A DNA stretch of 32,000 nt from Nitrosopumilus maritimus SCM1 (GCF_000018465.1 NC_010085.1:120001-152000); one strand, 5' to 3'; counted from the stretch's first letter, positions 12,142-31,970 are shown. Notes: generated from the sequence alone by a model not told the origin. Numbers and translations are program-made.

Positions 12142-12786
12142 ATGAATGAAATTATCGATTTGACTTATTCAATAAATGAAAAAATGATTACTTATCCTTC
12201 TCCATGGCATCCAAAAGTTTCTCTTGAACGATTAGGTAAAATTGAAGATGTTGGAAGAAATACTCGTAAATTGGTTCTTGGAACCCATACAGGAACTCAT
12301 ATTGATGCTCCTCTACATTTTATCCCTGATGGAAATAGTATAGAAAGTATTCCATTGGAGAAAATTACAGGTACAGTAACTATTTTGGATTTTACAAACT
12401 TGAAAAATAATCACCCAATTACAAAAGAAGAATTACAAGATAAAAAAATCTCAAAACGATTAATTTTTAGATTTGGTTGGCAGAAATATTGGAATACTCC
12501 TAATTTTTATAATGATTATCCATTTTTTACTGAAGATGCTGCAAATTATCTTGTTTCACAAGGTGTTGAATTGATTGGTTATGATACTCCTTCTCCTGAT
12601 AAAAGTAAACAAGATGATGTAGACTCTCCAATTCATAAGATCTTTTTAAGTAATCAAATTGTTCTGTTAGAATATTTATCAAATTTAGATTGTGTACAAA
12701 ATCTTGAAGGATGGAGTATTGTTGTTGCTCCAATGAAAATAGATGGTTCAGACGGTTCTCCTTCAAGAGTTTTTATTTTCAAGTAG
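12142..12786 (+). CDS. Cyclase-family protein (kynurenine formamidase-like metal hydrolase)
   Basis: HTGTHIDAPLHF matches the HxGTHxDxPxH motif of the putative cyclase/arylformamidase family. The protein is 214 aa. Confidence 0.7.
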   Translation: MNEIIDLTYSINEKMITYPSPWHPKVSLERLGKIEDVGRNTRKLVLGTHTGTHIDAPLHFIPDGNSIESIPLEKITGTVTILDFTNLKNNHPITKEELQDKKISKRLIFRFGWQKYWNTPNFYNDYPFFTEDAANYLVSQGVELIGYDTPSPDKSKQDDVDSPIHKIFLSNQIVLLEYLSNLDCVQNLEGWSIVVAPMKIDGSDGSPSRVFIFK

Positions 12787-12794
12787 GTGATTTT

Positions 12795-13049
12795 TTGACA
12801 ATATTGGAATGGTTGCTTGAATGGTTTGAAAATAATTCTGATCTAAAATCAAATGAAATTTTGAGTTCTTTAAATGAAGATTTTCTAATTAAAGGATGGA
12901 TAGACTCATTTACTTTTATAAATTTAATCACTGAAATAGAAGAAAAATATAAAATTTCTTTTAACACTGATGAATTACAAAATGAAAAATTTGCAACTTT
13001 AGATGGTTTAGCTAATATCATTGGAGATAGAATTGAAAAAAACTTATGA
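12795..13049 (+). CDS. Acyl/peptidyl carrier protein (ACP/DltC-like)
   Basis: The frame contains KGWIDSFTFINLITEIEEKY, a D-S phosphopantetheine attachment motif followed by an amphipathic helix. Starting at TTG 12795 gives ~85 aa with the Ser at residue 38, which is typical carrier-protein geometry. The track's ATG at 12711 would overlap the cyclase gene by 76 nt, so the start is uncertain. Confidence 0.7.
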   Translation: MTILEWLLEWFENNSDLKSNEILSSLNEDFLIKGWIDSFTFINLITEIEEKYKISFNTDELQNEKFATLDGLANIIGDRIEKNL

Positions 13050-15374: not shown

Positions 15375-16670
15375 ATGAAAATTCTAGTCCCTACCTCTGT
15401 TTTACCTGAAAAAAAAGGTCTTAGATTCAATTTCATTTCAAATATTGTTGATTCAGTGAGAAAAAATAACGATGTAAAAATAATTTGGGTTATATATCAA
15501 CCAGATAAAATTTTAAAAAAAGATACGTCTGAGAATCAAATTTTAGATATACATGATTTTAAGAATGCTATAGATTTAGTTGAAAAATCAAACCCTGATT
15601 GCATTATGGTTGGACAAGAATTGGAACCTATTCAACATTCTTTAAGTTTAGCTGCTAAGAAATTTAATGTACCATTAATCAGTTTTTTCTATAATAATTT
15701 TGAAATAACAAATTCAAATATGTTGGAAAGAAAAAAACAACTTTTATCTTATTTGAGAATTATTCTTTCAAGTAGAGTCCCATCAGATTCATCACATAAA
15801 GGATTTTTAAGAAGATTTAGATTTATTTTATTTAAATTAAATTTTTTAAAAAATACGAAATCATCTCTTAACATGTCTGATTTTAATAACTTCTTTTTTG
15901 TTTTTAAAGAACTTTTTAGTTATTTAACAAAAAAAGAAATAGATGTAAATATTTTTCCTGATCTTTTTCTTTTACCCGATAATTCATGGAATAAAAAATT
16001 ATTATCATTAGGAATTCCTGAAAAAAAATTTGCAGTTGTTGGTAATCCAATTCTAGATGAATTGTATGATAAATCTAAAATAATTAAACAATATTATAAA
16101 AATGATAAAATCTCGATTTTGATTGTTACAGATGCTTTAGTTGAACATGGAATTTGGAGTAGAACTCAAATGACTTATTTTTTTACTGCGCTAATTAAAC
16201 AATTAATTAAAAACCAAAATTTTACTTTTTCTTTAAAAATTCATCCATCATCTGAAAATAAAATTATTTATGAAAAATTATTAAATAAAAATAATGTCTC
16301 GTCTAAAATTTACCAACATGAAAATATTTTGGAAATTATTGAAAAATTTGATATAGTTATTTCTTATGGAATATCTACAATTCATACTGAAATTGCATTG
16401 TTAGGAATGAAAATGTTACTTTTGGATCTGAATTTTAATTTTCCACTTGGTTATTTTGTTAAAGAAGGAATAGAATGCGGAAATATCATCAAATGTCAAA
16501 ATTTTGAATACATGAATAAACAAATTAAACAACTTGTTGACTCGAAATTAGAAAATTTCAGTACTTTTGAGAAAGAACGCAAAAATCTGATTTTTGGTTT
16601 TGATGGATTATCTAGTAAAAGAGCTGCTGACGCTGTACAACAAATTCTTAAAAATAGGGATCAATTATGA
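15375..16670 (+). CDS. GT-B-fold protein, paralogue of the C-terminal half of 7631-9448
   Basis: VVGNPILDELYD, SLKIHPSSEN and DIVISYGISTIHTEIALLGMKMLLLD align block for block with EVGNPVFDNL, VKLHPAPSE and LMIVTDFSTTILEGTLFEKPVISV of the 605-aa protein. Function is unresolved: a NeuC/PseG-like UDP-sugar hydrolase/epimerase or a CMP/CDP-donor transferase. Confidence 0.4.
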   Translation: MKILVPTSVLPEKKGLRFNFISNIVDSVRKNNDVKIIWVIYQPDKILKKDTSENQILDIHDFKNAIDLVEKSNPDCIMVGQELEPIQHSLSLAAKKFNVPLISFFYNNFEITNSNMLERKKQLLSYLRIILSSRVPSDSSHKGFLRRFRFILFKLNFLKNTKSSLNMSDFNNFFFVFKELFSYLTKKEIDVNIFPDLFLLPDNSWNKKLLSLGIPEKKFAVVGNPILDELYDKSKIIKQYYKNDKISILIVTDALVEHGIWSRTQMTYFFTALIKQLIKNQNFTFSLKIHPSSENKIIYEKLLNKNNVSSKIYQHENILEIIEKFDIVISYGISTIHTEIALLGMKMLLLDLNFNFPLGYFVKEGIECGNIIKCQNFEYMNKQIKQLVDSKLENFSTFEKERKNLIFGFDGLSSKRAADAVQQILKNRDQL

Positions 16671-18000: not shown

Positions 18001-18744
18001 TCATTTCACACTTTCATTAAACTTTGCTTGATTATCAAGAAATTCTTTCTGTTTATGAAAATTAATTTGTATCAAATGTTTATTATTGTTCAAAAAATCT
18101 AGAATCTCTTTTCCAGAAGATAAGATATCTAAATTTTCATATAGCTTTTTAAAAAATTCTAAATCTTCTTTATAATCTAAAGTAAATCTTACATTTTCAT
18201 TTTTTTCAAAATCTTTCAATGGAACAATATCTGTAGTTAAATTAGCTTTTTCTATATATCTTGTTATGACATCTGTATTGATTTCATCAGTGGGTGCAAC
18301 AGAAAATAATTTTTTTATTCCTTTCTCGTTTATTGCTGATGTAAAAAACCCTGTCACAATATCTTTTGGGTGAGTAATCATATCGACTGATTTATTTTTT
18401 AATTCTGAAATTGCTCTTTTTCCAATATCATAACTATATGAAAGATCATCTCCATCAACTAATAATGCATATTGAATTCCAAATTTATTAAAACACTCAT
18501 ACCATCTTTTAATTTTATTTATTAATGGTCCACGAAATATTTCCACATCATTTTTCTTAGCAATATCTTCAAAAATATCATCTTCTTTTGATGTTGATGT
18601 TGCAATAATTACTGGCAATTCTGTTTTTTTTGCTCTTTGAATGACAACGTCTATTGAAGTGAAGTTATTTTTAATTTCCATTATTGCTTTATTTGGTAAT
18701 CTAGTTGAAGAGTTTCTTACTGAAACAATTGCAGCTGAGTTCAT
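18001..18744 (-). CDS. Cytidylyltransferase, CTP_transf_3/SpsF-like (paralogue 2)
   Basis: N-terminal AAIVSVRNSSTRLPNKA matches the same motif as 4078-4836 (ARTGSDRFPKKV). It is the last gene of a four-gene minus-strand operon with 1-4 nt junctions. Confidence 0.7.
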   Translation of the reverse strand: MNSAAIVSVRNSSTRLPNKAIMEIKNNFTSIDVVIQRAKKTELPVIIATSTSKEDDIFEDIAKKNDVEIFRGPLINKIKRWYECFNKFGIQYALLVDGDDLSYSYDIGKRAISELKNKSVDMITHPKDIVTGFFTSAINEKGIKKLFSVAPTDEINTDVITRYIEKANLTTDIVPLKDFEKNENVRFTLDYKEDLEFFKKLYENLDILSSGKEILDFLNNNKHLIQINFHKQKEFLDNQAKFNESVK

Positions 18745-19729: not shown

Positions 19730-20547
19730 TTTACTATCAACCCTGCCTCTGTAATACTCTCTAGAAACTGCCTAAAACCTTTTCCACCATTTTCATGGCC
19801 TTTCCATACTTCTATCGCAAATCCCTTATCTTTATGATTATTTAACATTGGAATAATTTTATCAAATTCCATATTTCCCTCTCCATATTGTAACCCTTCT
19901 CCATCTATATCATCTGCATCTGATAAATGGAAATGATCAACTCTTTTTTCAATTATCTTTAATTGATCTATTAGAGAAATTTGTTTAGTATTACAATACA
20001 GTTGTGCGTGACATAAATCATAGCAAACATTTAGACCCAATTTTTCACAATATTTTTCCATATCATTTGCGTCAAGAAAAACATTTGAATGCCATCTTCC
20101 TCCAAAAAACCAAGCATACGGAGGCATATTCTCCATTAAAAAATTCACTTTACTAATATCCAATTTTTCCACTGCATCAAACATACCATTTTTCATTTTT
20201 TCTTTATCTTCTATGCTAAGTTCAGATAATGAATATCCTCCAGGGTGTACAATTATAGATGGTTTGCCTTGAAATTGTTCATTTAATGACACTGTTTTAT
20301 CAATTGCCTTTTGAATCAATTCAATAGTCTTTTCTTGAGAATGAATTTGGTTTGTTTCTCCAAAACTAACTATATCCAACAATTTTCGCTCAAAATATTC
20401 ATAGCAATGAACAATTAATCTTTGATCAAATTTTTGATCTAATTCTAAATTTAAATCACTATCAGAAAAATGAAATTCTAAAATTTTTGGATTGAATGCC
20501 AACATATCATCCAAATCTTGTTTTCTAACTTTCATTCCTAAAATCAT
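19726..20547 (-). CDS. Xylose-isomerase-like TIM-barrel protein (AP_endonuc_2 family, sugar phosphate isomerase/epimerase-like)
   Basis: The size (273 aa) and the spaced conserved His/Glu/Asp blocks (IIVHPGG, LMENM, YDLCHAQL, HFHLSD, AIEVW) fit this fold. It is sandwiched between NeuB2 and Gmd with 4-bp overlaps on both sides. Confidence 0.55.
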   Translation of the reverse strand: MILGMKVRKQDLDDMLAFNPKILEFHFSDSDLNLELDQKFDQRLIVHCYEYFERKLLDIVSFGETNQIHSQEKTIELIQKAIDKTVSLNEQFQGKPSIIVHPGGYSLSELSIEDKEKMKNGMFDAVEKLDISKVNFLMENMPPYAWFFGGRWHSNVFLDANDMEKYCEKLGLNVCYDLCHAQLYCNTKQISLIDQLKIIEKRVDHFHLSDADDIDGEGLQYGEGNMEFDKIIPMLNNHKDKGFAIEVWKGHENGGKGFRQFLESITEAGLIVN

Positions 20548-21593
20548 AAATCATCATCCTGAAGATAGTCATTTCTTTTAATTTCTCTTTTTGATTTTTT
20601 TCCTAAAATTTCATAATAATATTGTGGAGAAAGTCCTTTAGCTGGACCTTTTATTGCTAAATTATTTTCAGAAAATATTTCATCTTTTTTAATATCATTT
20701 TTTGCAGTAATGCTTTTGCCTAAAACCTCTTTCTGTAAAATTTCTCCCCTGGTCATTTTTTTTATGGGCTTTCCTTTTGCTTTTTCAGCTTCCCTGATAT
20801 CTTTTACTAGTTTTTTAAACTCATCTGGTTCTAATGATGCTGCTTGATCTAAACCTTCCATGGTTTTGTCTAATGTGATATGCCTTTCAACAATTATTGC
20901 TCCTAACATAACTGCAGCTAACGTGCTTACAATCCCTGGTTCATGGCCACTGTAACCAATCAAAACTTGAAATTTTTCTTTTAAGAGTGAAATTAGTTCA
21001 AGATTTAATGTTTCAACTGGAGCTGGATATGTGCTATTACAATGAAGTAAAGCAAATTTGGCATTTTTTTCTTTCATAAAAGAAACTGTTTTTTCTATTT
21101 CATTCATGTTTGACATGCCAGTTGATACAATCAATGGTTTACCTGTTTGAATTAGACTTGATATCAAAGGAAAATTTGTCATATCTGCAGATGCTATTTT
21201 GTAAGCTGGAAGATCAAATTTTTCCAAAAATTCCACACTTGGAATATCCCAAGGTGTGCAAAGAAATGTAATGTGTTTTTCTTTGCAGTACTCGGTTAAT
21301 TCTTTATATGCATCATCATCAAATTCAACTTCATTTAAAACATCTAGAAGAATTTCTAATCCTTGACTTTCAATGTTTGGATCTTTTAGAACATCTTCTC
21401 GATAAATATCATTTAGAGATCTTTTCTGAAACTTTACTGCATTTGCCCCCGCATCTACTGCAACATCAATTAATTTTTTAGCAGTTGTTATGTTGCCGTT
21501 ATGATTGATTCCTATTTCTGCAATGATATATGCAGGTTCTTTAGTGCTTATCCTGTCCTTTCCAATTACTATATCATTTTCATGCTCTGCCAT
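20544..21593 (-). CDS. neuB: NeuB-family nonulosonic acid synthase (paralogue 2, canonical type)
   Basis: IIAEIGINHNGNITTAKKLIDVAVDAGANAVKFQKR is the textbook NeuB N-terminus. GYSGHE and VERHITLD carry the metal-binding His residues, and a C-terminal SAF-like domain (SITAKNDIKKDEIF) is present. Confidence 0.88.
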   Translation of the reverse strand: MAEHENDIVIGKDRISTKEPAYIIAEIGINHNGNITTAKKLIDVAVDAGANAVKFQKRSLNDIYREDVLKDPNIESQGLEILLDVLNEVEFDDDAYKELTEYCKEKHITFLCTPWDIPSVEFLEKFDLPAYKIASADMTNFPLISSLIQTGKPLIVSTGMSNMNEIEKTVSFMKEKNAKFALLHCNSTYPAPVETLNLELISLLKEKFQVLIGYSGHEPGIVSTLAAVMLGAIIVERHITLDKTMEGLDQAASLEPDEFKKLVKDIREAEKAKGKPIKKMTRGEILQKEVLGKSITAKNDIKKDEIFSENNLAIKGPAKGLSPQYYYEILGKKSKREIKRNDYLQDDDL

Positions 21594-21683: not shown

Positions 21684-22691
21684 ATGCAAATTTTAGTAGT
21701 GGGTCTAGGCTCTATGGGAAAACGAAGAATTCGTTGTTTACAAAAACTTGGTTTAAAAAATATTATTGGATTTGATCCAAGACAAGATAGACGAGATGAA
21801 TCTGAAAAACTTTACAAAATTTCAACAGTACCCACAATCAATGATGGCTTAAAACTTAATCCCAAATGTATGATCATCTCTACCCCTCCTGATCTTCATT
21901 ACAAATATGCATTAGTTGCAATGAAAAATAAAATTCATTTTTTCACAGAAGTTAATTTGTCTTCAAATGATGTACAAAAAATTATCAAAAAACTAAATGG
22001 GTTGTCTATATTGGGATTACCTTCAAATACTTTAATCTATCATCCATTGATTAAAAAATTAAAAACTCTAATATCAAAAAACCAAATTGGTAAAACACTA
22101 ACCGTTTATCATCATTTTGGACATTATCTGCCTAATTGGCATCCTTGGGAAGATTATAGGGATTTTTATGTTTCAAAGCGACAAACTGGAGCTGCAAGAG
22201 AAATCGTTCCCTTTGAATTAGTTTGGTTATCGTACATTTTTTCAAGTATAAAATCTGTTTATGGAAGTATTCACAAAGTATCCTCTCTAAAAACAGATAT
22301 TGATGATCTCTATCAAGCAATTATTGAATTTTCAAACGGAATTCAATGCATTTTGGTGATTGATGTAATTTCTGACCCAGCTTTTAGTGAAACTAAGATC
22401 ATAGGCGAAAAAGGTGTTATACTATGTAATCATAATGAAGGTATTTTGAAGATTGGAAAATCATCAAAATGGAAAACTACAAAAATTGAATCTGGTGAAG
22501 TTGCAAAAGGATACAAAGGAAATACTCCTTCAGAATCTCTTTATGTTGCAGAAATAAAAAATTTCTTAGATTCGATTAAACAAAAGAAAAAACCAAATTA
22601 TACTTTTGTAGAAGAATTGAGAATTTTAAAAGTTTTAGATGCAATAGAATTGAGTAATAGAAAGTCCAAAAAAATTGTAATTAAAAAATGA
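21684..22691 (+). CDS. Gfo/Idh/MocA-family oxidoreductase (paralogue 2)
   Basis: It has the N-terminal Rossmann motif ILVVGLGSMGKRRIRCL and a layout similar to 4833-5885. The EKP motif is replaced by TEVN. Confidence 0.65.
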   Translation: MQILVVGLGSMGKRRIRCLQKLGLKNIIGFDPRQDRRDESEKLYKISTVPTINDGLKLNPKCMIISTPPDLHYKYALVAMKNKIHFFTEVNLSSNDVQKIIKKLNGLSILGLPSNTLIYHPLIKKLKTLISKNQIGKTLTVYHHFGHYLPNWHPWEDYRDFYVSKRQTGAAREIVPFELVWLSYIFSSIKSVYGSIHKVSSLKTDIDDLYQAIIEFSNGIQCILVIDVISDPAFSETKIIGEKGVILCNHNEGILKIGKSSKWKTTKIESGEVAKGYKGNTPSESLYVAEIKNFLDSIKQKKKPNYTFVEELRILKVLDAIELSNRKSKKIVIKK

Positions 22692-24052
22692 AACCAAATA
22701 TACTGTTTTTAGTTGTAGACTCTTTACGTTCGGATAAATTTTATGGAGAATCTAAAACATCAATTACTCCGAACCTTGATTCTCTTTTAGAAAACGGAGT
22801 TTATTTTTCTCAGGCAATTAGTTCTGTACCTTCAACATCTCCATCAATGGGAAGTATATTCACTGGACTGTTTCCAATAAAAATTGGAATGGGACCTGAA
22901 TCCTATGAAAAATTAAATCCAAATGTTTCTACTTTTATAGAACATTTTAAAAAAAATGGATATTCAACTTTTGCAACTACTTCAGAGATCAATTCATTTT
23001 TGGGATTAACCGAAGATTTTGATCTGACTCTTCAACAGACTTCTCATAATAATTATTTCAGCCTATTTTCTGGATTGGGGGAAAAAATTACTGAAAAATT
23101 ACGTACTATGAAAAAAGAACCTTGGTTCTTTTATATTCATATTAATGATTTACATCAACCCGTTATTGTACCTGAAAAATACTCTGAAGAAAAATTTGGA
23201 ATAACAGATTACGAAAAAATGCTTTCAGCAATAGATTTTTGGATTGGAAAATTTTTTGAACAAATAGATTTTTCAAAAACTCTAGTAGTTTTAACTGCAG
23301 ATCATGGTGAATATGTTCGCTCACTCCAAATTGATGGAAAAATGATCAATCTTGAATCAAGCTCATCTGAAAAGACCTTGTGGAAGTTGGGGAATAAAAT
23401 TCCCAATTTTCTTTATGGGCCAAAAAGAAAATTATCTTCAATATTACAAAAAACTAGAGATAAAAATCGTCAAAAGAAAATTGAAGAACTTGATCTTTCT
23501 GAATATGAAAAAAGAGTATTATCAATGTCTAGAATGAGTTCAGGTTCTCATGTTTTTGATGATGTGTTAAAAGTTCCATTAGTTTTCAAAGGATTCCCGA
23601 TAAAAAACCCAAAACTAATTTCCCAACAAGTTGGCTTGTTGGACATCTTTCCCACTATTACAGATCTTATTGAAATTCCAAAGATTAATGCAAAAATTGA
23701 TGGTAATAGTTTGTATCCATTGATTCAAAATGAAAAAATTGATGAAAAACCATTATTTATTCAAAGTATGCCGTCAATATCTGATGATAATCTAATTCTT
23801 GTTGGAATTAGAACAAACTCTTTCAAATATTTTCGTGAAAAGAACAACAAAAAGAAAAACAAACTTTTTGATTTGGCAAATGATCCCTTAGAAGAAAAAG
23901 ATATCTCTTCTCAAAAACCAGAGATTGTTTTAAAAATGGAAAAAATTCTCCAAGAATATCTGATCACTGAAAATAATTTTTCTCCAGACTCTTTACAGAA
24001 TGATGAAAGAAAGAAAGTTGAAGACGAATTAAAAAAACTGGGATATCTTTAA
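22688..24052 (+). CDS. Alkaline-phosphatase-superfamily ('sulfatase'-family) protein with a Thr nucleophile; NPP/phosphodiesterase- or phospho(no)transferase-like
   Basis: ILFLVVDSLRSD is the metal-binding first strand, and ITPNLDSL follows it. The nucleophile motif reads T50-S-P-S-M-G-S-I-F-T-G-L-F-P where arylsulfatases have C-x-P-x-R-xxxxTG. It looks closer to the NPP motif T-F-P-N-H-Y-S-I-V-T-G-L-Y-P. LTADHGE is also present. I see no N-terminal TM segment or signal peptide. Confidence 0.7.
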   Translation: MKPNILFLVVDSLRSDKFYGESKTSITPNLDSLLENGVYFSQAISSVPSTSPSMGSIFTGLFPIKIGMGPESYEKLNPNVSTFIEHFKKNGYSTFATTSEINSFLGLTEDFDLTLQQTSHNNYFSLFSGLGEKITEKLRTMKKEPWFFYIHINDLHQPVIVPEKYSEEKFGITDYEKMLSAIDFWIGKFFEQIDFSKTLVVLTADHGEYVRSLQIDGKMINLESSSSEKTLWKLGNKIPNFLYGPKRKLSSILQKTRDKNRQKKIEELDLSEYEKRVLSMSRMSSGSHVFDDVLKVPLVFKGFPIKNPKLISQQVGLLDIFPTITDLIEIPKINAKIDGNSLYPLIQNEKIDEKPLFIQSMPSISDDNLILVGIRTNSFKYFREKNNKKKNKLFDLANDPLEEKDISSQKPEIVLKMEKILQEYLITENNFSPDSLQNDERKKVEDELKKLGYL

Positions 24053-24142
24053 ACACTAAATTTTTTCATGTACTAATTTCTATTATATGTGAGATTTATA
24101 CCAAGAATATAATAGGTAGAAATTATTAAAAAAATTACGTTG

Positions 24143-25516
24143 ATGGAAAAAAAGATTGATTTCAAGCCTGATTCTTATTTGATTCGTTCTGGAAACAATT
24201 TTTTGGGAATTTTAAATGATATTAAACGAAGACCAGAAGATGCTGCAAATGAATTGGGTGTTTCTATTGAAGAAATTAACTCAATAATTTCTGGAAAGCA
24301 AAAAATCTCCCCATCTTTAATTGAAAAAGCCGTAAATATCTGGCCAGTTAATGAAAGAGATTTCTATATTGTTTCCGATGATTGTTCTTCTGGAATCTTA
24401 ATTATGACTTCTCAAGATTCAATCAAATCATCTCGCATTATGGAAAGAGCTGGAAAACCATATTATGAATATCGAGATACTGCTATGAGCAAAACTGCTC
24501 CTTTTAGGCCTGAATGGATTTTGGAATTATGCAAAGTTGAAAATAATGACCCTGAAAATCCAAAAGCGCAATGGAATAATGGACATTTCATGCATCAATT
24601 TACATATTTTATCGGAGAAGTAAATTTCTATTACAAAGATCCTGAAGGAAAAAAACATGTCGCAATTATGAATACTGGTGATTCAATGTATATTACTCCA
24701 TTTACTCCTCACACCTTTACTACAAGAGATGGTGCATCTCAAAATGGTTTAATTTTAGCATTAACTTATGGGAGTAAACTTACTGGTGATATTCAGCAAG
24801 AATTGTCGTCATTATCGCTTGATTGTGGAAGTCAATATGCATTAGATTTTACTAATCACGAAAATGCCAGTTTATCATTATTAGAATATTATTTTGAATT
24901 ATCAAATCTGACTAAAGAAAAATTTGCAAAACGAACAAACTTTTCTATGGAAACACTTGCTGATTTCTTTACAAAAAAGAAATTACCAACTTTTGATGAA
25001 CTTAAGATTATTGCTAAAGCTCTAAATGTAAATTCTAGAGATTTAATGCCTAATGATTTGACTGAATCTAAAGTTATTGTAAAAACTCATGATCAATGTG
25101 ATCATTGGAAATACCCTGAATCTGGAAATTATGAATTTTACGAACTTGCATCAACCACCGCTTTGCCTCACTCCAAAGCATTTGAAATTGATGTTTCATC
25201 ATCAGAAGATCTCAATCTTGATCTGAAAGTTGGATTACATCAATATGTGTATAATATTGGCGATTCTGCACTGACAATTAATTGGAATTATGAGAATAAA
25301 ACATATCAGAAATCATTGAATCCTGGCGATTCTGCTTATATCAAACCTTTTGTTCCTCACAATTTCCGTGGAAATGGCAAAATTCTAATTTTGAGAATTG
25401 GTGGAAAAATTTCTGGTGATTCACAACGAGAATTATCATTTGTAGGAAGGGAAAATACTCAACGAGCAATTTCTGAAACAATGCAATGGTTTGATCCAAA
25501 AGGTTCAAACTCTTAA
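24143..25516 (+). CDS. mpnS: Methylphosphonate synthase (non-heme Fe(II) 2-hydroxyethylphosphonate oxygenase, HEPD/HppE family)
   Basis: The architecture is a tandem (HTH-like + cupin) x2. Numbering from ATG 24143, the metal ligands are His148 (24584-24586), Gln152 (24596-24598) and His190 (24710-24712). Phe162 and Ile184 are also present, matching my recollection of the published N. maritimus MPnS structure. It is clustered with ppm, ppd and an Fe-ADH. The track's TTG at 24140 adds one residue and is probably not the start. Confidence 0.9.
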   Translation: MEKKIDFKPDSYLIRSGNNFLGILNDIKRRPEDAANELGVSIEEINSIISGKQKISPSLIEKAVNIWPVNERDFYIVSDDCSSGILIMTSQDSIKSSRIMERAGKPYYEYRDTAMSKTAPFRPEWILELCKVENNDPENPKAQWNNGHFMHQFTYFIGEVNFYYKDPEGKKHVAIMNTGDSMYITPFTPHTFTTRDGASQNGLILALTYGSKLTGDIQQELSSLSLDCGSQYALDFTNHENASLSLLEYYFELSNLTKEKFAKRTNFSMETLADFFTKKKLPTFDELKIIAKALNVNSRDLMPNDLTESKVIVKTHDQCDHWKYPESGNYEFYELASTTALPHSKAFEIDVSSSEDLNLDLKVGLHQYVYNIGDSALTINWNYENKTYQKSLNPGDSAYIKPFVPHNFRGNGKILILRIGGKISGDSQRELSFVGRENTQRAISETMQWFDPKGSNS

Positions 25517-25546: not shown

Positions 25547-26671
25547 ATGGCAAAAGAAAATTTGATCATCATAATGATTGATGGTGGAAGATTTGATTAT
25601 GGTTTAAATTCAAAAGTTTTTCAGGAAGTAGAAAAAACTTCAGTATTTTTTTCAAATTCTATAACTTATGGGCCCCATACAATTGCTGCAATGCATGCAG
25701 TATTTAGTGGATGTTATGGAACTAGAACAGGAACAAACAGTTATTGGTCTACATATGATTTTAAAAAAGAAAGTTTTGTCACACTCACTGAATATTTGTC
25801 TTCTAATGGATATTTTACATCTGCAGATCTGATTAATGAGTTAGTAGTTCCTAAACAAGGATTTGATGAATATATCGTACATGATGAAATTAATGACGAT
25901 TTAACTTTAAGACACAAAAAAATCTTATCAAAAATTCAAACTAAAAATCAAAAGGGTCAACCATCTTTTCTTTATTTACATTATAGTAAAATTCACACAG
26001 GTATAATGAATGAGGTCTTAAAAAAATATGATAATTTTAGTGACGAATTCTTTGATAATCCTGATCAAAACAAAAATAGATATGAAAAATTATTTATTTC
26101 TGCTGAAAATTATTTAAAAACAATTTTAGAAGAAATTAAAAAACTAGGATTGGATGATAATTCTCTTATTCTAATTATGTCTGATCATGGTGTAAGTGTA
26201 GGTGAAAAATTTGGTGAACGAGCTTATGGAGCATTCTGTTATGATTACACGTTAAAAACAATCACCCATTTCATTTCAAAAAAATTTCAATCAAAAAGAA
26301 TTACACAGCAAGTACGCACAATAGATTTCATGCCTACAATTTTACAATTTTTAAAGATCCCATTAGATAATACCAAAGAACCATTAGACGGGGTTTCTTT
26401 GATGCCCTTGATCAATAACAAAAAAATTGATGAACAATTTGCCTATTCTGAAACAGGTAATCCTCTAAAAGAAAAACAACCTCCAAAAATTCCAAATGTT
26501 ATGTCTATTCGTAACTCAAATTGGAAACTAATATACAATTTACACAATGATTCCAAAGAAATGTACAATTTGCTTGAAGATCCGTTAGAATTAAAAAATT
26601 TGATTGGAACAAATAACGAAATTGAATCCATGCTTTGGAATGAATTACTCAAAATCCAACAATCTAACTAA
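25547..26671 (+). CDS. Alkaline-phosphatase-superfamily ('sulfatase'-family) protein with a Thr nucleophile (paralogue 2)
   Basis: LIIIMIDGGRFDY is the first strand with the metal-binding Asp. The nucleophile-position motif is T45-I-A-A-M-H-A-V-F-S-G, with Thr for Cys and Met for Arg, the same substitutions as in 22688-24052. MSDHGVS is also present. It lies 30 nt downstream of mpnS on the same strand. Confidence 0.65.
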   Translation: MAKENLIIIMIDGGRFDYGLNSKVFQEVEKTSVFFSNSITYGPHTIAAMHAVFSGCYGTRTGTNSYWSTYDFKKESFVTLTEYLSSNGYFTSADLINELVVPKQGFDEYIVHDEINDDLTLRHKKILSKIQTKNQKGQPSFLYLHYSKIHTGIMNEVLKKYDNFSDEFFDNPDQNKNRYEKLFISAENYLKTILEEIKKLGLDDNSLILIMSDHGVSVGEKFGERAYGAFCYDYTLKTITHFISKKFQSKRITQQVRTIDFMPTILQFLKIPLDNTKEPLDGVSLMPLINNKKIDEQFAYSETGNPLKEKQPPKIPNVMSIRNSNWKLIYNLHNDSKEMYNLLEDPLELKNLIGTNNEIESMLWNELLKIQQSN

Positions 26672-26672
26672 T

Positions 26673-27416
26673 TTATTTAAATAATTCTTCAGCTCTGTTT
26701 AGATCCTGTTTTGTATCAATTTCACACCATTTACCTGAAATGAATATTGGTGAAACTTGAATTGAATTATTAATTAATTCTTGAATCATATCTGTTAGAT
26801 ATCCTTTTTCTAAAGAAACTGCATTATGGAATTTTCCCGTATGGTTTTTTTGTAAGTAATCAATTTTTTCTAAAAATACTTTTGTTCCATGTTCACTCAT
26901 TTTTATAATTCCTAGAAATTCCCCAACAATATTTGAAGTACTTTGAATATTCTTTTTAATTTCAACAATGTTATTTTTTTTATCTAACAATACATTCTCT
27001 GCTTCAGAAAATGGATGTTCTGTTCTCCCTTCATAAGATTTTTTCCAGTCTAAATCAATTGCAATAGCAATATCTTTTGTTGTGTTAAGTATTTGATGAA
27101 TAATATTTTCATCAAAAATTATATCCGAATACAAAATTATTACTTCTCCTTGTAAGAAATTTTTAGCCACCATCAAACTTCCTAAAATATCATGCTTTTC
27201 ATTTTCAAAATCTTTGACTATTTTCATTCCTTTATTATCAAATTGATTATGTTTTCCTGAAATAACTATGATTTCTGAAATATTATTTGATTCAAATGCT
27301 TTAATTTGTCTCTCTAAGATAGTTTTTCCATTTACAGGAATTAGTGATTTTGGAATTTCTTTAAATTCTTTCGAAATTCTTTGACCTTTTCCTGCTGCAA
27401 TTATGATTACTTTCAT
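26673..27416 (-). CDS. Nucleotidyltransferase (NTP_transferase fold, LicC/PntC-like; candidate phosphonate cytidylyltransferase)
   Basis: It has the N-terminal MKVIIIAAGKGQRIS (G-x-G-x-R) signature and is 247 aa. It is the last gene of the ppm-ppdA-ppdB operon, with a 7-nt gap. The substrate is inferred from context only. Confidence 0.7.
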   Translation of the reverse strand: MKVIIIAAGKGQRISKEFKEIPKSLIPVNGKTILERQIKAFESNNISEIIVISGKHNQFDNKGMKIVKDFENEKHDILGSLMVAKNFLQGEVIILYSDIIFDENIIHQILNTTKDIAIAIDLDWKKSYEGRTEHPFSEAENVLLDKKNNIVEIKKNIQSTSNIVGEFLGIIKMSEHGTKVFLEKIDYLQKNHTGKFHNAVSLEKGYLTDMIQELINNSIQVSPIFISGKWCEIDTKQDLNRAEELFK

Positions 27417-27423
27417 GAATATT

Positions 27424-27972
27424 CTATAATGATTTTTTTACTCTATCTCTAATATCTTTAGGTTTCCAGATTACTCTTTTGCTTCTTTCTTTACTTGTAG
27501 AAATTTTTACCAACAAAAAGATCGGTCCATTGAGTCTCTTAATTTTTTTCAACATACTTTCTAATTGATTTTTGGATTTAGCTGTAAATGTTGTGTAGTT
27601 ACCAATTTTTGCAATTTTTTCTAAATGAATTTTTGAAGAATTTGTAGGCTGACCTCCAGTTGATTCATGACTACTATTATCAAAAACTACATGGATCAAA
27701 TTTTTTGGTTTCATACTACCAATAGTTACAATTGAACCTAAATTCATCAAAATATTCCCATCTCCATCAAACACAAAAACTCGTTTTTTTGGATTTTTTA
27801 TTGCTAATCCTAATCCTATTGATGATGCCAATCCCATTGACCCGATCATGTAAAAATTTGATTCCTTATCACATACTTCAAACAAATCTCTACTCATAAA
27901 GCCATTAGCTGAAACAATTGGAGAATTTTTTATATTTCTAGCTATGGTTGCCACTGCTTCTTTTCTAATCAT
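27424..27972 (-). CDS. ppd: Phosphonopyruvate decarboxylase, beta subunit (ThDP-binding C-terminal domain, ComE-like)
   Basis: It has the ThDP motif FDGDGNILMNLGS...VVFDNSSHESTGGQ (GDG-x~25-N). It overlaps the alpha-subunit gene by 8 nt and lies directly downstream of ppm. Confidence 0.85.
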   Translation of the reverse strand: MIRKEAVATIARNIKNSPIVSANGFMSRDLFEVCDKESNFYMIGSMGLASSIGLGLAIKNPKKRVFVFDGDGNILMNLGSIVTIGSMKPKNLIHVVFDNSSHESTGGQPTNSSKIHLEKIAKIGNYTTFTAKSKNQLESMLKKIKRLNGPIFLLVKISTSKERSKRVIWKPKDIRDRVKKSL

Positions 27973-28453
27973 GAAATAATCTCCGAATTACTAAGGCACA
28001 AGGTTTGTTGTTTTTCAAATTTTCTATTGCCCAATCACAACAAGATTTCCAATTAGAGTCAGTTAACACCTTTGATTTTAAACCAATAATTTTTAATAAA
28101 TCAGGTTGAATTTTTCCAATTTTTAGATGTTCAGGAGCATCATCTGATAAGTACCCTCTCCATCCTATCAAAAAAATTATTGGAATTTCGTATAATTGAA
28201 CTAATGATGTAATTGTACTTATGGAATTGGCAAATCCAGCATTTTGCATGAATACTAATGATGAACTTTTTGATATAGTAGTACCAGTTGCTATTCCAAT
28301 AGCTTCTTCTTCTCTAGTTGTAATGATGGAATTTTTATTTTTAATAGATTCGTCAATAAAGTGTTTCAGTGTAGAATCTGGGACCCCTATAAAATTTTCA
28401 ATTTTTTTCTTTTTTAGATAATGAAATAATTTTCTTTGATTTTTTTCATTCAA
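27965..28453 (-). CDS. ppd: Phosphonopyruvate decarboxylase, alpha subunit (ThDP pyrimidine-binding N-terminal domain, ComD-like)
   Basis: GVPDSTLKHF and REEEAIGIATG (catalytic Glu) are typical of the N-terminal domain of ThDP decarboxylases. A 4-bp overlap joins it to ppm. Confidence 0.85.
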   Translation of the reverse strand: MNEKNQRKLFHYLKKKKIENFIGVPDSTLKHFIDESIKNKNSIITTREEEAIGIATGTTISKSSSLVFMQNAGFANSISTITSLVQLYEIPIIFLIGWRGYLSDDAPEHLKIGKIQPDLLKIIGLKSKVLTDSNWKSCCDWAIENLKNNKPCALVIRRLFHD

Positions 28454-29349
28454 TTTATGTAACCCAATTTTTTAAGATTTTTTTCTATATCTGTTTCTTG
28501 TTTTTTTATTTCATACATTTCTTGCAGTTTAAAAATTTCTTCCATTGTAGTCATATTTGATTTTATTTGACTGAGACTTTTAGCTTTAGATAGTTGCTCC
28601 AGATGTTCTTTCATTGCTAAATGTGCTACTCGAAGTGATTGATTTGCATAAATTGCTATTCTTATTTTGTGTTTTTCTAATTCATCAATAGTTACATTTG
28701 GATATGATGTTGGAATTGCAATTATGGGTATATCTCCGTCCCACAAATCACAAAATTCAAAAATCTCATCAGGAGTTTTACTCTTTGAATGAATTAAAAT
28801 CGCATCTGCCCCAGCTTTTTTGTATGCATTAGCTCTTTTCAATGCTTCATCTACCCCTAATCCAGCTATTAATGCCTCCACTCTGGCAATGATCATAAAA
28901 TTTTCATTTACTTTAGCATTTTTAGCTGCAATTAATTTTGCAACAAAATCTTTTTCTGATAACAATTGTTGATTACCGTTTTCCAATAAACTGTTTTGTT
29001 TAGGAAAAATCTTATCCTCAATACTAACTGCAGCCACTCCTGCACTTTCATATTTTTTTACCATGTGACTCACATTGCTCGGTCCACCAAACCCTGTATC
29101 GCAATCTGCAATAACTGGAATTGAGCAAGCATCAGTCATATTAGATGCTACAGAAAGAAATTCTGTCATTGTAAGAATACTGGCATCTGGTAATGCATGA
29201 GTTGCAGAAATTGCAAAACTCCCGGCCCAAATTGCATCAAAACCGCTCAATTCCACTAATTTTGCCGACATTGCATCAAATGCACCAGCAACTTTCAAAA
29301 TTGATTTTTGATTAAGTTGAGAGTTTAGTATGTTTGCACCATCATTCAT
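28450..29349 (-). CDS. ppm: Phosphoenolpyruvate phosphomutase (PEP mutase)
   Basis: It belongs to the isocitrate-lyase/PEP-mutase superfamily (ADCDTGFGG). It carries the PepM-specific signature EDK-x5-NS as E111-D-K-I-F-P-K-Q-N-S120 (nt 28990-29019, checked codon by codon). Confidence 0.92.
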   Translation of the reverse strand: MNDGANILNSQLNQKSILKVAGAFDAMSAKLVELSGFDAIWAGSFAISATHALPDASILTMTEFLSVASNMTDACSIPVIADCDTGFGGPSNVSHMVKKYESAGVAAVSIEDKIFPKQNSLLENGNQQLLSEKDFVAKLIAAKNAKVNENFMIIARVEALIAGLGVDEALKRANAYKKAGADAILIHSKSKTPDEIFEFCDLWDGDIPIIAIPTSYPNVTIDELEKHKIRIAIYANQSLRVAHLAMKEHLEQLSKAKSLSQIKSNMTTMEEIFKLQEMYEIKKQETDIEKNLKKLGYIN

Positions 29350-29411: not shown

Positions 29412-30347
29412 ATGTGGACCATTAAACAGCCTCCAAAAATCATTTTTGGTAAAAATTGTGTATCTGAGTTTATTTTTCCGACAAAGTGTTTAGTTGTAAC
29501 ATCTAAAGGAGCAAAATCTAGAGGATGGCTTGATTATTGTGGGTTAAATGATCAAATGATTTTTAATAATGTTGAACCAAACCCTTCAATCGAAACAACA
29601 GAAAAAATTATTTCAGAATTCCAAAATTCTGATTTTACACATATTGTTGGTATTGGAGGGGGCAGCTCAATGGATGTTGCCAAATATTGTGGTTTTAAAA
29701 TGAATAAACAAAAACTCATGATTCCAACTACTTTTGGAAGCGGTAGTGAAGTAACCCGTATTTCCGTATTGAAGGTTAATGGAAAGAAAAAAAGTTTTCA
29801 TGATGATGGAATCTTTTCTGATACTGCATTAATTGATTCATTTTTTCTTGAAAATTCTACACCTAAAATTTTTAAGAATTCTGTCATAGATGCATGTGCA
29901 CAATGTACTGAAGCATATGATAGTAAATCATCAAATCCATATACGAAGTTTTTTTGTAATCAAGCTTTTGAATTGTTAGAAGAAGGAATTCTTACAAATA
30001 ATAATGAAAAAATTGTATTGGGATCCTTATTTGATGGATTGGGATTTGGAAATTCTTCTACTACTTTAGGACATGCACTGTCCTATGTTTTTTCAAATGA
30101 GGGAATTTCTCATGGTCATGCTTTAGCATTTACTACTTCTGCTGCTCACAAATTTAACAAATCAAAATATTTTGAACGATTTGAAAAACTAGTTTCTTTC
30201 TTAGGTTTTGAACCCATCACATTAGAGCAATCATTAGATCATGCTACAGAAACAATCTTACCTGATAAAAAACACCTTGATAATAACCCAATTCCTGTAT
30301 CGAAAGACGACATCTATAACTTGTTAAAAACAATTATTTCAAAATAA
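29412..30347 (+). CDS. pdh: Iron-containing alcohol dehydrogenase (phosphonoacetaldehyde reductase, making 2-hydroxyethylphosphonate)
   Basis: It has the Fe-ADH motifs GIGGGSSMDVAKY and LGHALSY...ISHGHALA (metal-binding His residues). It is divergent from ppm. At 311 aa it is compact compared with typical ~380-aa family members. Substrate assignment comes from context and analogy with PhpC/FomC. Confidence 0.8.
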   Translation: MWTIKQPPKIIFGKNCVSEFIFPTKCLVVTSKGAKSRGWLDYCGLNDQMIFNNVEPNPSIETTEKIISEFQNSDFTHIVGIGGGSSMDVAKYCGFKMNKQKLMIPTTFGSGSEVTRISVLKVNGKKKSFHDDGIFSDTALIDSFFLENSTPKIFKNSVIDACAQCTEAYDSKSSNPYTKFFCNQAFELLEEGILTNNNEKIVLGSLFDGLGFGNSSTTLGHALSYVFSNEGISHGHALAFTTSAAHKFNKSKYFERFEKLVSFLGFEPITLEQSLDHATETILPDKKHLDNNPIPVSKDDIYNLLKTIISK

Positions 30348-30647: not shown

Positions 30648-31970
30648 TTAATGTAATCTATTATAGATTTTGTATATATTGCTAATTCTTGTTGGATCTG
30701 GATCATATAGCAAATTAATGAAATGTTCGTTCCATTGATCAGGTTTTCTATCCCCTTGCCACCTAGCTGATAAAAATAATGTTTCCCAAAGTAGTTCATT
30801 ATTAACTGCTTTTTGAACTAAATGTGCAGGGATTTTCATCCAATAATTCCAATCATCCGTTTTTCCTTCTGTTACAAAAGAACCTGATTCCTTATCTTTA
30901 GAAATATCTAAAATATACTCTCCTCCATTTTTACCGTCTGCAATCAGTTGAACTTTCATATCGATATGTTTTCGTGCAACAGGGTTTTCAGAGATTATTT
31001 TGTTGAAATAATCATATATCTCATTAGATAATTTTTGTGAAGCTTCTCCTTCTTCCTTCCATCGTCTATTAAGATCTTCTTGAACTTGGATTGAAAACTC
31101 ATTTACTACATCTGTCTTGTCTGATGAAAAAATTGGATTATTATTTTTGGTGTGTGTGCCATCAATTGAAATTTCATCATCTGCTGCCATGGCTACCACT
31201 TCTGTTCCTAAATTTCCACTATTATCCCACGCCTTTTTTGGTTCATCAGGACATCCAAAAACTGAGATGGGATAGTTTAGTTTTAGTTGAGATTCATGAG
31301 GAAATAATGGGCCTCCAGCATACGGAATAGCAAATTTTGGTTTTATAGTATTTACATAATTTACAAATCCATTGATTTTATTGTCTTTTCTTTTAATAGC
31401 AATTTCATCTCGTTTCTCTTTTGAATAATTATATGCATCTGGATACCAGTTTGCCACAGAATACATGAAAAATCCAATATCTGGTTTTGCAGCATTTACT
31501 TTCTTAAGGGATTCAAAATCCATTTTACAATCAGTCTGACAAAAAACTGTTCCTTCTTTGCTTTTGATAAGTAAAGCGGAATCCTCAAACATCAAATCTG
31601 GGTTTTTAATAGATGTGATTTCTAAACCCTCATTAATTTTTTCAGGTTTCCAAGAGTCAAGAACAGTGATGTTAGAAAATCCTAATTCTTTGATAGCATT
31701 ATGAAATCTATTTGTTGGAAAATTACAAATATAGATTTGTGTTTTTTTATCAAATTGACATAATGATTCTGCTTGAAAATGATCTTCATGTTCATGAGAA
31801 ATGTAAATTGCGTCAACGTCAGTAGGAATGTTTTTCTTTGTAGCTGGTTCTCTTCTAAGTGTATACCATGTGTTTACATTGCAAGGACCAACAATCCATG
31901 GATCAACAATTATTCTAAAATTATTCGTTTCAATTAGTGTACAAGCTTGTCCTAAAAATCTTACAAACAT
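30648..31970 (-). CDS. MBL-fold (Lactamase_B_3-like) protein; resembles the catalytic domain of CMP-N-acetylneuraminate hydroxylase (CMAH)
   Basis: It has H59-E-H-E-D-H64 (HxHxDH) preceded by IVDPWIVGP. By eye it is collinear over its full length with vertebrate CMAH as I remember it: DPWLIGP; IYISHLHSDH; ...CPFAGYF versus AIPYAGGP; GLLWDELYIG versus ELLWETLFLS. This needs a real alignment. Confidence 0.6.
   Translation of the reverse strand: MFVRFLGQACTLIETNNFRIIVDPWIVGPCNVNTWYTLRREPATKKNIPTDVDAIYISHEHEDHFQAESLCQFDKKTQIYICNFPTNRFHNAIKELGFSNITVLDSWKPEKINEGLEITSIKNPDLMFEDSALLIKSKEGTVFCQTDCKMDFESLKKVNAAKPDIGFFMYSVANWYPDAYNYSKEKRDEIAIKRKDNKINGFVNYVNTIKPKFAIPYAGGPLFPHESQLKLNYPISVFGCPDEPKKAWDNSGNLGTEVVAMAADDEISIDGTHTKNNNPIFSSDKTDVVNEFSIQVQEDLNRRWKEEGEASQKLSNEIYDYFNKIISENPVARKHIDMKVQLIADGKNGGEYILDISKDKESGSFVTEGKTDDWNYWMKIPAHLVQKAVNNELLWETLFLSARWQGDRKPDQWNEHFINLLYDPDPTRISNIYKIYNRLH

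Follow-up and report, generated by a model that had tools for sequence, protein, structure and literature searches.

Threonine-type sulfatase-fold proteins beside the methylphosphonate synthase of Nitrosopumilus maritimus are candidates for attaching phosphorus head groups to glycans

The methylphosphonate synthase (mpnS) cluster of Nitrosopumilus maritimus SCM1, the organism in which the synthesis of methylphosphonate (MPn) was discovered, raises a simple question: what are two proteins annotated as 'sulfatase family' or 'sulfatase-like hydrolase/transferase' doing on either side of mpnS? The cluster and the 'sulfatase' label are already known, and in 2012 Metcalf et al. reportedly noted that homologues of sulfatases and nucleotidyltransferases hint at a polysaccharide decorated with MPn. 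We analysed a stretch of 32,000 nucleotides (NC_010085.1:120001-152000, hereafter the window), recognized as this cluster through exact database matches of both proteins: ABX12052 / A9A1T1, of 454 amino acids (aa), here AP454, and ABX12054 / A9A1T3, of 374 aa, here AP374. Both carry a threonine where sulfatases have formylglycine. Together with the adjoining LicC/PntC-type nucleotidyltransferase, here NTase, they form a conserved three-gene module, in which the genes for the phosphorus head group change from one genome to another. An earlier, sequence-only reading of this DNA had the pair bracketing mpnS with a nucleotidyltransferase nearby, and the open reading frames (ORFs) bear this out:

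22688-24052, plus strand: AP454, soluble Thr-type sulfatase-fold protein, 454 aa (ORF, exact database match, Pfam).
22718-22720, plus strand: D11 of AP454, predicted metal ligand on strand 1 (alignments).
22835-22849, plus strand: T50-S-P-S-M, nucleophile motif of AP454 in place of C-x-P-x-R (translation, alignment to the formylglycine column).
23138-23155, plus strand: H151-I-N-D154-L-H156 of AP454 (translation, alignments).
23300-23308, plus strand: D205-H206-G207 of AP454, predicted metal ligands (translation, alignments).
24140-25516, plus strand: mpnS, methylphosphonate synthase, between AP454 and AP374 (ORF; HTH_3 and weak cupin matches).
25547-26671, plus strand: AP374, soluble Thr-type sulfatase-fold protein, 374 aa (ORF, exact database match, Pfam).
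25679-25693, plus strand: T45-I-A-A-M, nucleophile motif of AP374 (translation, alignment).
26183-26191, plus strand: D213-H214-G215 of AP374, predicted metal ligands (alignments).
26673-27416, minus strand: NTase, LicC/PntC-type nucleotidyltransferase (Pfam NTP_transf_3 / IspD / NTP_transferase).

Translation of 22835-22876 gives TSPSMGSIFTGLFP (T50-S-P-S-M-G-S-I-F-T-G-L-F-P of AP454), and that of 25679-25711 gives TIAAMHAVFSG, starting at T45 of AP374. In HMMER alignments to solved sulfatases, T50 falls on the column of the formylglycine Cys/Ser and M54 on that of the Arg, so T50-S-P-S-M and T45-I-A-A-M indeed stand at the formylglycine position proposed for them earlier. The motif [CS]-x-[PA]-x-R was found in neither protein, and AP454 is devoid of any Cys. 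In the AlphaFold2 models (pLDDT 88.4 and pTM 0.91 for AP454; 84.9 and 0.88 for AP374) the Thr is placed at the N-terminus of a helix that follows a core strand. For AP454 this is helix 50-59 after strand 38-44, and the assignment of T50 as the nucleophile position is upheld by the confident model as well as by the alignment.

The threonine is conserved at every depth of sampling. Among AP454 and its 120 closest homologues, the T50 column holds T in 115 of 118 aligned residues and S in the other 3, with no C; in an alignment of the query pair and 149 representatives clustered at 50% identity (n=151), the counts are T 123, S 11, C 0 and P 1. T45 is invariant in the AP374 family (121/121 sequences), where the block P-H-T-I-A-A-M-H-A-V-F-S-G varies at A48 and V52 alone, in two sequences each. 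The alignments present the Thr-for-Cys substitution as a family trait, not chance. Across 95 metagenome relatives aligned at the nucleophile column (T 88, S 2, C 5), Arg is found at +4 in all five Cys sequences and in no Thr or Ser sequence. Because Cys always comes with the +4 Arg and Thr or Ser never does, the aligned families fall into two discrete active-site states, and AP454 and AP374 belong to the Thr state.

The remainder of the sulfatase site is altered as well. In the family, Met, Val, Leu or His takes the place of the +4 Arg; S12 of AP454 stands where sulfatases have the second Asp of their D-D pair (Ser or Gly in the family); no sulfate-binding G-K-x-H motif is aligned in the AP454/AP374 family; and the sulfatase D-N/Q-G has become D-H-G, D205-H206-G207 being aligned to GDNG, SDNG or SDQG of solved sulfatases. 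All that is left of the sulfatase binding set is its first Asp, the active-site His and the later Asp. Judged from their sequences, AP454 and AP374 cannot be formylglycine sulfatases, since they lack C/S-x-P-x-R, the +4 Arg and the second Asp are replaced and G-K-x-H is missing; on this the earlier reading was right. The 32-kb window, the sole DNA examined for this purpose, encodes neither a formylglycine-generating enzyme (FGE) nor an anaerobic sulfatase-maturating enzyme (anSME).

Could they be genuine sulfatases all the same, using Thr or a modified Thr in place of formylglycine? Sulfatase is their best Pfam, NCBIfam and fold match, and some relatives adjoin sulfotransferases. We nevertheless find the idea barely credible: the motif recognized by FGE or anSME is missing, as are the sulfate-binding Arg and Lys-x-His, and the scores lie far below the NCBIfam equivalog cutoffs (best 100 bits versus 481 for arylsulfatase, 85 versus 433 for choline sulfatase and 58 versus 900 for PehA; the PehA model, NF045661, gives 58 and 35 bits). 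In addition, sulfatases that have been characterised do not get beyond a sulfo-Thr or sulfo-Ser intermediate, C69S arylsulfatase A being the example.

The loss of so many canonical residues (Cys, +4 Arg, second Asp, Lys-x-His) would also suit former sulfatases without any catalytic activity, now used for binding or as scaffolds. What has been kept makes this very improbable: over more than 250 sequences there is hardly any variation in the Thr or in the predicted ligands D11, D205 and H206, conservation of H156 is strong, and H151 and D154 are additionally fixed in the family. D11 is Asp in 117 of 117 aligned close homologues (the other 4 are gapped) and invariant in alignments A1 and A3. Among the representatives (n=151), D205 is found in 146, H206 in 147, G207 in 146, H151 in 141, D154 in 116 (with E in a further 25) and H156 in 127; D213-H214-G215 of AP374 is invariant in 121/121 sequences and in alignment A2. 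By alignment, H156 is the counterpart of the conserved active-site His of sulfatases. H151 is specific to the family, the compared solved sulfatases having Ser or Ala there, and D154 is kept where sulfatases vary (Ser, Gln, Glu). From this pattern, D11, D205 and H206 are predicted to fit one metal site, and H151, D154 and H156 could form a second.

The ancestry of the pair follows from its overall matches. Pfam Sulfatase (PF00884) scores 110.6 bits with AP454 and 77.1 bits with AP374, and both also have the SGSH_C C-terminal domain. Single-sequence searches of the Protein Data Bank (PDB) returned, for both proteins, only formylglycine sulfatases and phosphonate monoester hydrolases (PMHs). A family profile built from 62 diverse Thr-type members gave the same answer in its best 60 PDB matches (E 1.9e-48 to 8e-22), among which LtaS, EptA, NPP (nucleotide pyrophosphatase/phosphodiesterase) and PhnA are all missing. 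Foldseek searches of the PDB with either model returned S1 sulfatases only in the best 50 matches (TM ~0.6-0.7), with no EptA, MCR or LtaS among them; the PDB holds no solved structure from within the Thr-type clade. Sequence profiles and predicted models thus agree in making AP454 and AP374 offshoots of the arylsulfatase / PMH branch.

Like the S1 sulfatases and PMHs (arylsulfatase A, choline sulfatase, Rhizobium/Burkholderia PMH), the pair combines an N-terminal alpha/beta core with an SGSH_C-type C-terminal subdomain and keeps the nucleophile-helix frame x-x-P-S-x-x-S-I/L-x-T-G, the first Asp, the His (H156) and the D-x-G metal motif. It departs from them in having Thr rather than formylglycine, Met/Val/Leu/His at +4, Ser/Gly for the second Asp, D-H-G and no G-K-x-H, in the fixed H151 and D154 of its family, and in being cytoplasmic and part of a biosynthetic operon.

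The sequence-only reading had likened the T50 segment to the nucleophile motif of NPPs, and had suggested comparing Sulfatase with Phosphodiest profiles. The resemblance is real and local: Pfam Phosphodiest (PF01663) matches AP454 at residues 6-68 alone (profile positions 2-62 of 342, 45.9 bits, against 110.6 for Sulfatase), and AP374 at 25.7 bits, barely over the cutoff and far under its own Sulfatase score. It does not mark descent from NPP, LtaS, EptA or PhnA. With profile, PDB and fold matches all of the sulfatase type, the NPP-like motif is best described as the sulfatase nucleophile helix with C changed to T and R to M, and we rejected an NPP, LtaS or EptA ancestry on the Pfam, profile and Foldseek matches. 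NPP and PhnA, which act on nucleotide-linked anhydrides or diesters, do share a Thr that starts the equivalent helix, but the pair is sulfatase-type overall, SGSH_C included. An NPP has a two-zinc site of six Asp/His ligands, for which D11, D205 and H206, together with a possible second set of H151, D154 and H156, are candidates. A membrane-anchored enzyme was likewise rejected for want of a hydropathy peak: the maximal Kyte-Doolittle mean over 19 residues is 1.16 in AP454 and 0.74 in AP374, which confirms that an N-terminal membrane domain is missing, and both proteins begin at strand 1 with no N-terminal extension.

If they are not sulfatases, with what chemistry are they associated? The remaining genes of the cluster are these:

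21684-22691, plus strand: GFO/IDH/MocA oxidoreductase (Pfam; junction sequence).
27424-28453, minus strand: phosphonopyruvate decarboxylase (ppd), two subunits, 27424-27972 and 27965-28453 (Pfam TPP_enzyme_C, TPP_enzyme_N).
28450-29349, minus strand: phosphoenolpyruvate (PEP) mutase, ppm (Pfam PEP_mutase, 197 bits).
29412-30347, plus strand: pdh, Fe-dependent alcohol dehydrogenase, from phosphonoacetaldehyde to 2-hydroxyethylphosphonate, 2-HEP (Pfam Fe-ADH).

AP454 is followed after 87 nt by mpnS, and mpnS after 30 nt by AP374. NTase converges on AP374, with ORF ends 1 nt apart, and is followed by the two subunits of ppd and by ppm, from which pdh diverges. Upstream, the stop codon of the oxidoreductase overlaps the AP454 start codon (ATGA), so these two are probably co-translated; the same oxidoreductase gene precedes AP454 in locus L025 and lies ~6.7 kb upstream in L024. 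The mpnS ORF counts 458 aa from a TTG start, a sequence that the protein collection does not contain in exactly this form; annotation probably places the start at the ATG that comes one codon after the TTG (24140-24145).

The best solved relative of NTase is 6pd1 (E 5e-12), the phosphonate-specific cytidylyltransferase PntC of Treponema denticola, Tde1415 (PMC6697681). We compared Thaumarchaeal loci drawn from genomes, assemblies and metagenomes; a profile search of genome contigs with a narrower alignment gave 17 loci, 4 of them Thaumarchaeal. Of 17 informative Thaumarchaeal contexts, 15 combine an AP454-like gene, an AP374-like gene and a LicC/PntC-type NTase, in several gene orders. AP454, AP374 and NTase are a conserved three-gene module.

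The genes that accompany this module vary. mpnS lies between the pair in SCM1, L002, L018-L020, L025 and L026, and also on contig P0044, there judged by a gene of MpnS size. Locus L033 is an MPn-type tandem variant, with two AP454-like genes in a row followed by mpnS, AP374, NTase, ppd and ppm. Other loci do without the synthase: in L024 (Nitrosopumilus sp. b3, GCA_014078525.1; 10001-16223), AP454 and AP374 are adjacent and lead into NTase-ppd-ppm-pdh; mpnS is not found within 10 kb of the pair. In L032, AP454, AP374 and NTase are adjacent with no mpnS between them, and the contig ends there; L035 and L038 have ppm/ppd in other orders, with no mpnS in view on their 7-kb contigs. Variants without mpnS probably carry a 2-HEP head group, and for L024 the prediction is esters of 2-HEP in place of MPn. 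A gene for a B12-binding radical SAM protein recurs near the pair: L024 has it ~3.5 kb upstream, L026 immediately before AP454, and P0044 on the downstream side of the pair.

A third arrangement has no phosphonate genes in sight. In L001 (11458-15455) and L004 (11382-15316), from two Nitrosopumilaceae genomes, three other genes stand between the pair, and neither ppm nor mpnS is found within 10 kb. The first encodes a PPDK_N plus PEP-utilizers protein (837 and 821 aa), which in L001 matches NCBIfam PRK05849 over its full length with 819 bits; the second encodes a class-I glutamine amidotransferase (GATase) whose best NCBIfam match in L001 is gamma-glutamyl-CDP-amidate hydrolase; the third is a nucleotidyltransferase. 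PDB searches with the kinase-like and GATase-like proteins of L001 gave generic PEP-utilising and GATase matches only. In Campylobacter jejuni, cytidine diphosphoramidate is made by the products of Cj1418 (a glutamine kinase), Cj1417 and Cj1416 (PMC11800397, PMC3907429, PMC6429109). By analogy, the L001/L004 cassette probably mirrors Cj1418/Cj1417/Cj1416, with phosphoramidate as the head group, and its logic predicts phosphoramidate-decorated glycans in marine ammonia-oxidising archaea.

Locus L027 (8001-17371, GCA_041294365.1) holds four Thr-type genes, that is, two AP454/AP374 pairs. It also holds the same kinase-like gene, a sulfotransferase-fold gene and two methyltransferases between or next to the pairs. 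With a donor like 3'-phosphoadenosine 5'-phosphosulfate, the protein of the sulfotransferase fold might serve as an alternative transferase.

Does the pair itself register the change of head group? AP374 does. Phosphonate-type AP374 proteins, including that of L024 from a cluster without mpnS, are 61-71% identical to one another and phosphoramidate-type ones (L001, L004, L027c) 56-62%, while identity between the types is 34-40%. NTases split likewise, with 30-35% identity between types. The split reaches the nucleophile flank, which reads P-H-T-I-A-A-M-H in the phosphonate type and P-Y-T-[IF]-G-S-[VI]-N in the phosphoramidate type, i.e. A-A-M-H versus G-S-V/I-N at +2 to +5 from the nucleophile. 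AP454 shows no such division: between the L001 protein and those of SCM1, L025 and L024 identity is 61-62%, higher than the 51-55% of some orthologues from MPn clusters. Because AP374 and NTase divide by head-group type and AP454 does not, the sequences suggest that the former two see the head group and that AP454 acts on something common to all variants.

These arrangements bear on a less specific account, in which the pair would be generic accessory enzymes of glycan islands, acting on phospho-sugars, lipid carriers or nucleotide by-products, and its proximity to mpnS would reflect island architecture only. The window is indeed a hypervariable, low-GC glycan island, and Thr-type relatives are widespread in bacterial surface-polysaccharide clusters that have no phosphonate genes. 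Against this, the trio with NTase survives several reorderings and three head-group cassettes in the midst of changing glycan genes; the insertion point of mpnS and of the kinase/amidohydrolase-like cassette is exactly between the two genes of the pair; and AP374 clades match the head-group type. We consider the generic account improbable, and think it very probable that AP454 and AP374 are active enzymes of the Thr type whose function is linked to the phosphorus head-group module.

We now propose a pathway in which this module decorates a glycan with a small, singly charged phosphorus head group, X. Both proteins, which are soluble, would be alkaline-phosphatase-superfamily enzymes that depend on metal and attack with Thr, descended from the arylsulfatase/PMH branch by loss of the formylglycine apparatus (Cys, +4 Arg), the second Asp and G-K-x-H. 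NTase would make CMP-X (CMP, cytidine monophosphate), X being methylphosphonyl here, 2-hydroxyethylphosphonyl where mpnS is missing and phosphoramidyl where the glutamine-kinase-like cassette is present. Thr45 of AP374 would then attack the phosphorus of X, releasing CMP and leaving a covalent X-Thr intermediate, and AP374 would hand X to a sugar hydroxyl on the cytoplasmic side, before export of the glycan. AP454, independent of the head group, would act as another transferase, specific for the acceptor, or else edit the decoration as an esterase. Our analysis establishes the Thr active site, the fold, the solubility and the module with its exchangeable head-group genes; the substrates, the covalent intermediate and transfer in preference to hydrolysis are inferred. 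The sequence-only reading had already seen the pair as candidates for moving MPn or 2-HEP from a nucleotide carrier to a sugar, or for trimming such esters; that hypothesis is consistent with our results and strengthened by the context that ties the pair and NTase to the head group of the cluster.

The chemistry is plausible. The scaffold from which the pair descends binds phosphonate monoesters, and ping-pong transfer is performed by other enzymes of the superfamily that use Thr. Arylsulfatase and PMH scaffolds bind singly charged tetrahedral esters, and PMHs act on phosphonate monoesters. The superfamily members EptA/MCR-1 and LtaS also use a Thr nucleophile, to which a phospho head group is bound covalently before it passes to a glycan or lipid. 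They share with the pair a Thr nucleophile and a D-H metal pair in a PF00884 domain (T50 with D205-H206; T45 with D213-H214). Unlike the soluble pair, they have an N-terminal multi-pass membrane domain, catalyse outside the cytoplasm and use lipid donors, and their first metal ligand is Glu, where the first predicted ligand here is Asp.

The place in the pathway proposed for the pair is that of LicD, from a CMP- or CDP-linked head group (CDP, cytidine diphosphate), made by a LicC/PntC-type enzyme, to a glycan. Bacterial LicD-like enzymes are thought to carry CMP/CDP-activated head groups to glycans (PMC6697681); their fold and chemistry are unrelated to those of the pair. A Pfam scan of the window ORFs of at least 100 aa found no match to LicD, TagF, CDP-alcohol phosphotransferase or sulfotransferase; it left out one ORF, 20544-21593, which has a NeuB orthologue in L024. 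With none of these families found in the window, the pair provides the only candidate phosphotransferases nearby, and its Thr active site and the company of a cytidylyltransferase make AP454 and AP374 the best candidates for attaching MPn to cell-surface sugars.

Likeness extends to the O-methyl phosphoramidate (MeOPN) system of C. jejuni. Cytidine diphosphoramidate is the NH2 analogue of CMP-methylphosphonate, and the pair in L001/L004 flanks the Cj1418-, Cj1417- and Cj1416-like genes. To our knowledge, the genetically defined Campylobacter transferases of the Cj1421/Cj1422 system are not of the sulfatase fold. The archaeal clusters nevertheless recall that system in having two paralogous putative transferases each, as with Cj1421 and Cj1422 (PMC3907429).

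Several points weigh against the proposed transfer. We know of no alkaline-phosphatase-superfamily enzyme that uses a nucleotide-activated donor, EptA and LtaS using lipids, and sequence cannot tell transfer from hydrolysis. Two loci depart from the trio: beside its AP454-like genes and a kinase-like gene, L036 lacks both AP374 and a LicC-type NTase within 15 kb, and L039 has an AP454-like gene alone. As to the phosphoramidate analogy, the L001 GATase, at 122 bits, is under the 250-bit cutoff of the Cj1417 model; PRK05849 is a family that we presume to be the counterpart of Cj1418; and beside the archaeal cassettes we saw no kinase of the Cj1415 type. The co-variation of AP374 with NTase comes from ~10 loci and is a lead, not a statistic. 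Finally, AP454-type proteins of bacteria (27-29% identity) are encoded directly before a sulfotransferase, with several more in the cluster, and a sulfotransferase-fold gene lies beside the pair in L027; because of this company, the AP454 type may have a generic, non-transferase role. In L036 (772-11822), one of the two AP454-likes has a Ser nucleophile and the other has a glutamine-kinase-like gene directly downstream; no GATase is present in 15 kb, and nonulosonic-acid genes are again near.

The bacterial relatives deserve a closer look on this account. Thr-type relatives are abundant in bacteria, commonly with the motif T-L-P-S-H and often with N-terminal extensions or tandem copies. Soluble ones of the AP454 type, 27-29% identical over their full length, occur in Wzz / Bac_transf / GT4 exopolysaccharide clusters, in which no phosphonate genes were found; others adjoin Phosphodiest proteins and an LPG_synthase_TM-Sulfatase fusion, or GT2/GT4 genes. 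The broad family is thus tied to glycans with anionic decorations. This tie cuts both ways: it fits singly charged tetrahedral esters, and the coexistence with dedicated transfer enzymes keeps a hydrolase or editing role for AP454 alive. On two bacterial metagenome contigs (L028:9001-11519 and L029:9001-11005; GC 0.51-0.60), the AP454-like gene has a sulfotransferase directly downstream and two more near. A bacterial lipoprotein of 1450 aa, P0358, joins an NMT1-like domain to two tandem Thr-type sulfatase-fold domains (Y-T-V-P-S-T and W-T-L-P-S-F), so Thr-type domains also occur as secreted tandem pairs. We rejected it as evidence for physical pairing of AP454 with AP374, both of its domains being AP454-like and the protein a secreted lipoprotein.

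The strongest competing account is that AP454 and AP374 are Thr-type hydrolases of phosphonate or phosphoramidate monoesters or diesters, PMH- or NPP-like, which trim, edit or recycle the decoration or hydrolyse CMP-X, much as FomD hydrolyses a CMP-linked phosphonate in fosfomycin biosynthesis. The nearest relatives by sequence and fold, S1 sulfatases and PMHs, are hydrolases; the sulfotransferases beside bacterial AP454-types would already supply transfer; and AP454 does not track the head group. However, if both were conserved hydrolases of a biosynthetic operon, attachment would be left unexplained, since the 32 kb hold no other candidate transferase, and AP374 co-varies with the activating enzyme, as an enzyme that binds the donor would. 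We hold hydrolysis to be rather unlikely, without dismissing it. That a Thr-based transferase mechanism installs CMP-activated phosphonyl or phosphoramidyl groups on glycans is the reading that we tentatively prefer, though by itself a little less likely than not. More speculative is the full proposal, in which the pair and NTase would be a cytoplasmic, head-group-swappable installer and the first transferases of the superfamily known to use CMP-linked phosphonyl or phosphoramidyl donors by way of a covalent Thr intermediate.

The rest of the window provides the setting in which such a decoration would be made. Positions 842-21593 are a nonulosonic-acid and sugar-modification island, with a GC content of 25-30% throughout, and the 3' end of the window holds a further gene next to pdh:

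842-1897 and 20544-21593: two NeuB paralogues, the second assigned from its L024 orthologue.
4078-4836 and 18001-18744: two CMP-sugar synthetases.
7275-7622, 10601-12058 and 12711-13049: acyl carrier protein, AMP-ligase and phosphopantetheinyl transferase.
7631-9448, minus strand: large ORF of 605 aa with weak Epimerase_2 matches only.
15375-16670, plus strand: large ORF of 431 aa with weak Epimerase_2 matches only.
30648-31970, minus strand: metallo-beta-lactamase-fold protein of 440 aa with an SCP2-like C-terminal domain, adjoining pdh.

Other island genes include DegT, a PseB-like dehydratase, FdtA, a formyltransferase-like gene and an HMGL-like aldolase; the glycan of the window is probably rich in nonulosonic acids. 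We considered the 605-aa and 431-aa ORFs, which are GT-B-like, as TagF-like alternative transferases and rejected this in view of their weak Epimerase_2 matches. They are probably GT-B nonulosonic-acid transferases and may define the glycan that receives MPn. A 426-aa ORF of L027 has a similar weak Epimerase_2 match, plus a weak polysialyltransferase match. The metallo-beta-lactamase-fold gene is kept beside the cluster in L025, with a small Rieske gene between it and pdh; in L027 the protein and a Rieske domain form a fusion, and upstream of the L002 cluster there is a relative of 29% identity. It may belong to the phosphonate pathway.

In the searchable literature we found nothing on the Thr-for-Cys state of AP454 and AP374, on the conserved AP454-AP374-NTase trio, or on a phosphoramidate-type cassette replacing phosphonate genes in Nitrosopumilaceae; a 2024 preprint describes MeOPN-like genes on archaeal Borg elements. 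New here are the co-location of the trio with changing head-group genes and the coupling of a soluble, Thr-type enzyme on the arylsulfatase scaffold to nucleotide activation.

Altogether, a misleading 'sulfatase' label is removed, and two candidate enzymes, with their catalytic threonines, are named for the step that attaches MPn to a macromolecule. The family itself is a large one, and represents a natural switch of the arylsulfatase-type scaffold from formylglycine to Thr, strictly coupled with loss of the +4 Arg. The reuse of the same pair with different head-group genes, for MPn, probably for 2-HEP and probably for phosphoramidate, predicts a strain-specific surface chemistry in these abundant marine archaea. 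Esters of MPn and 2-HEP in marine dissolved organic matter are the proposed source of methane in oxygenated ocean water. If our proposal is true, AP454, AP374 and NTase would be the missing machinery that esterifies MPn and 2-HEP onto the glycans of marine archaea, the pool that feeds aerobic methane production in the ocean. The same scaffold would install phosphoramidate in other Nitrosopumilaceae, making glycans decorated through P-N bonds an archaeal trait as well.

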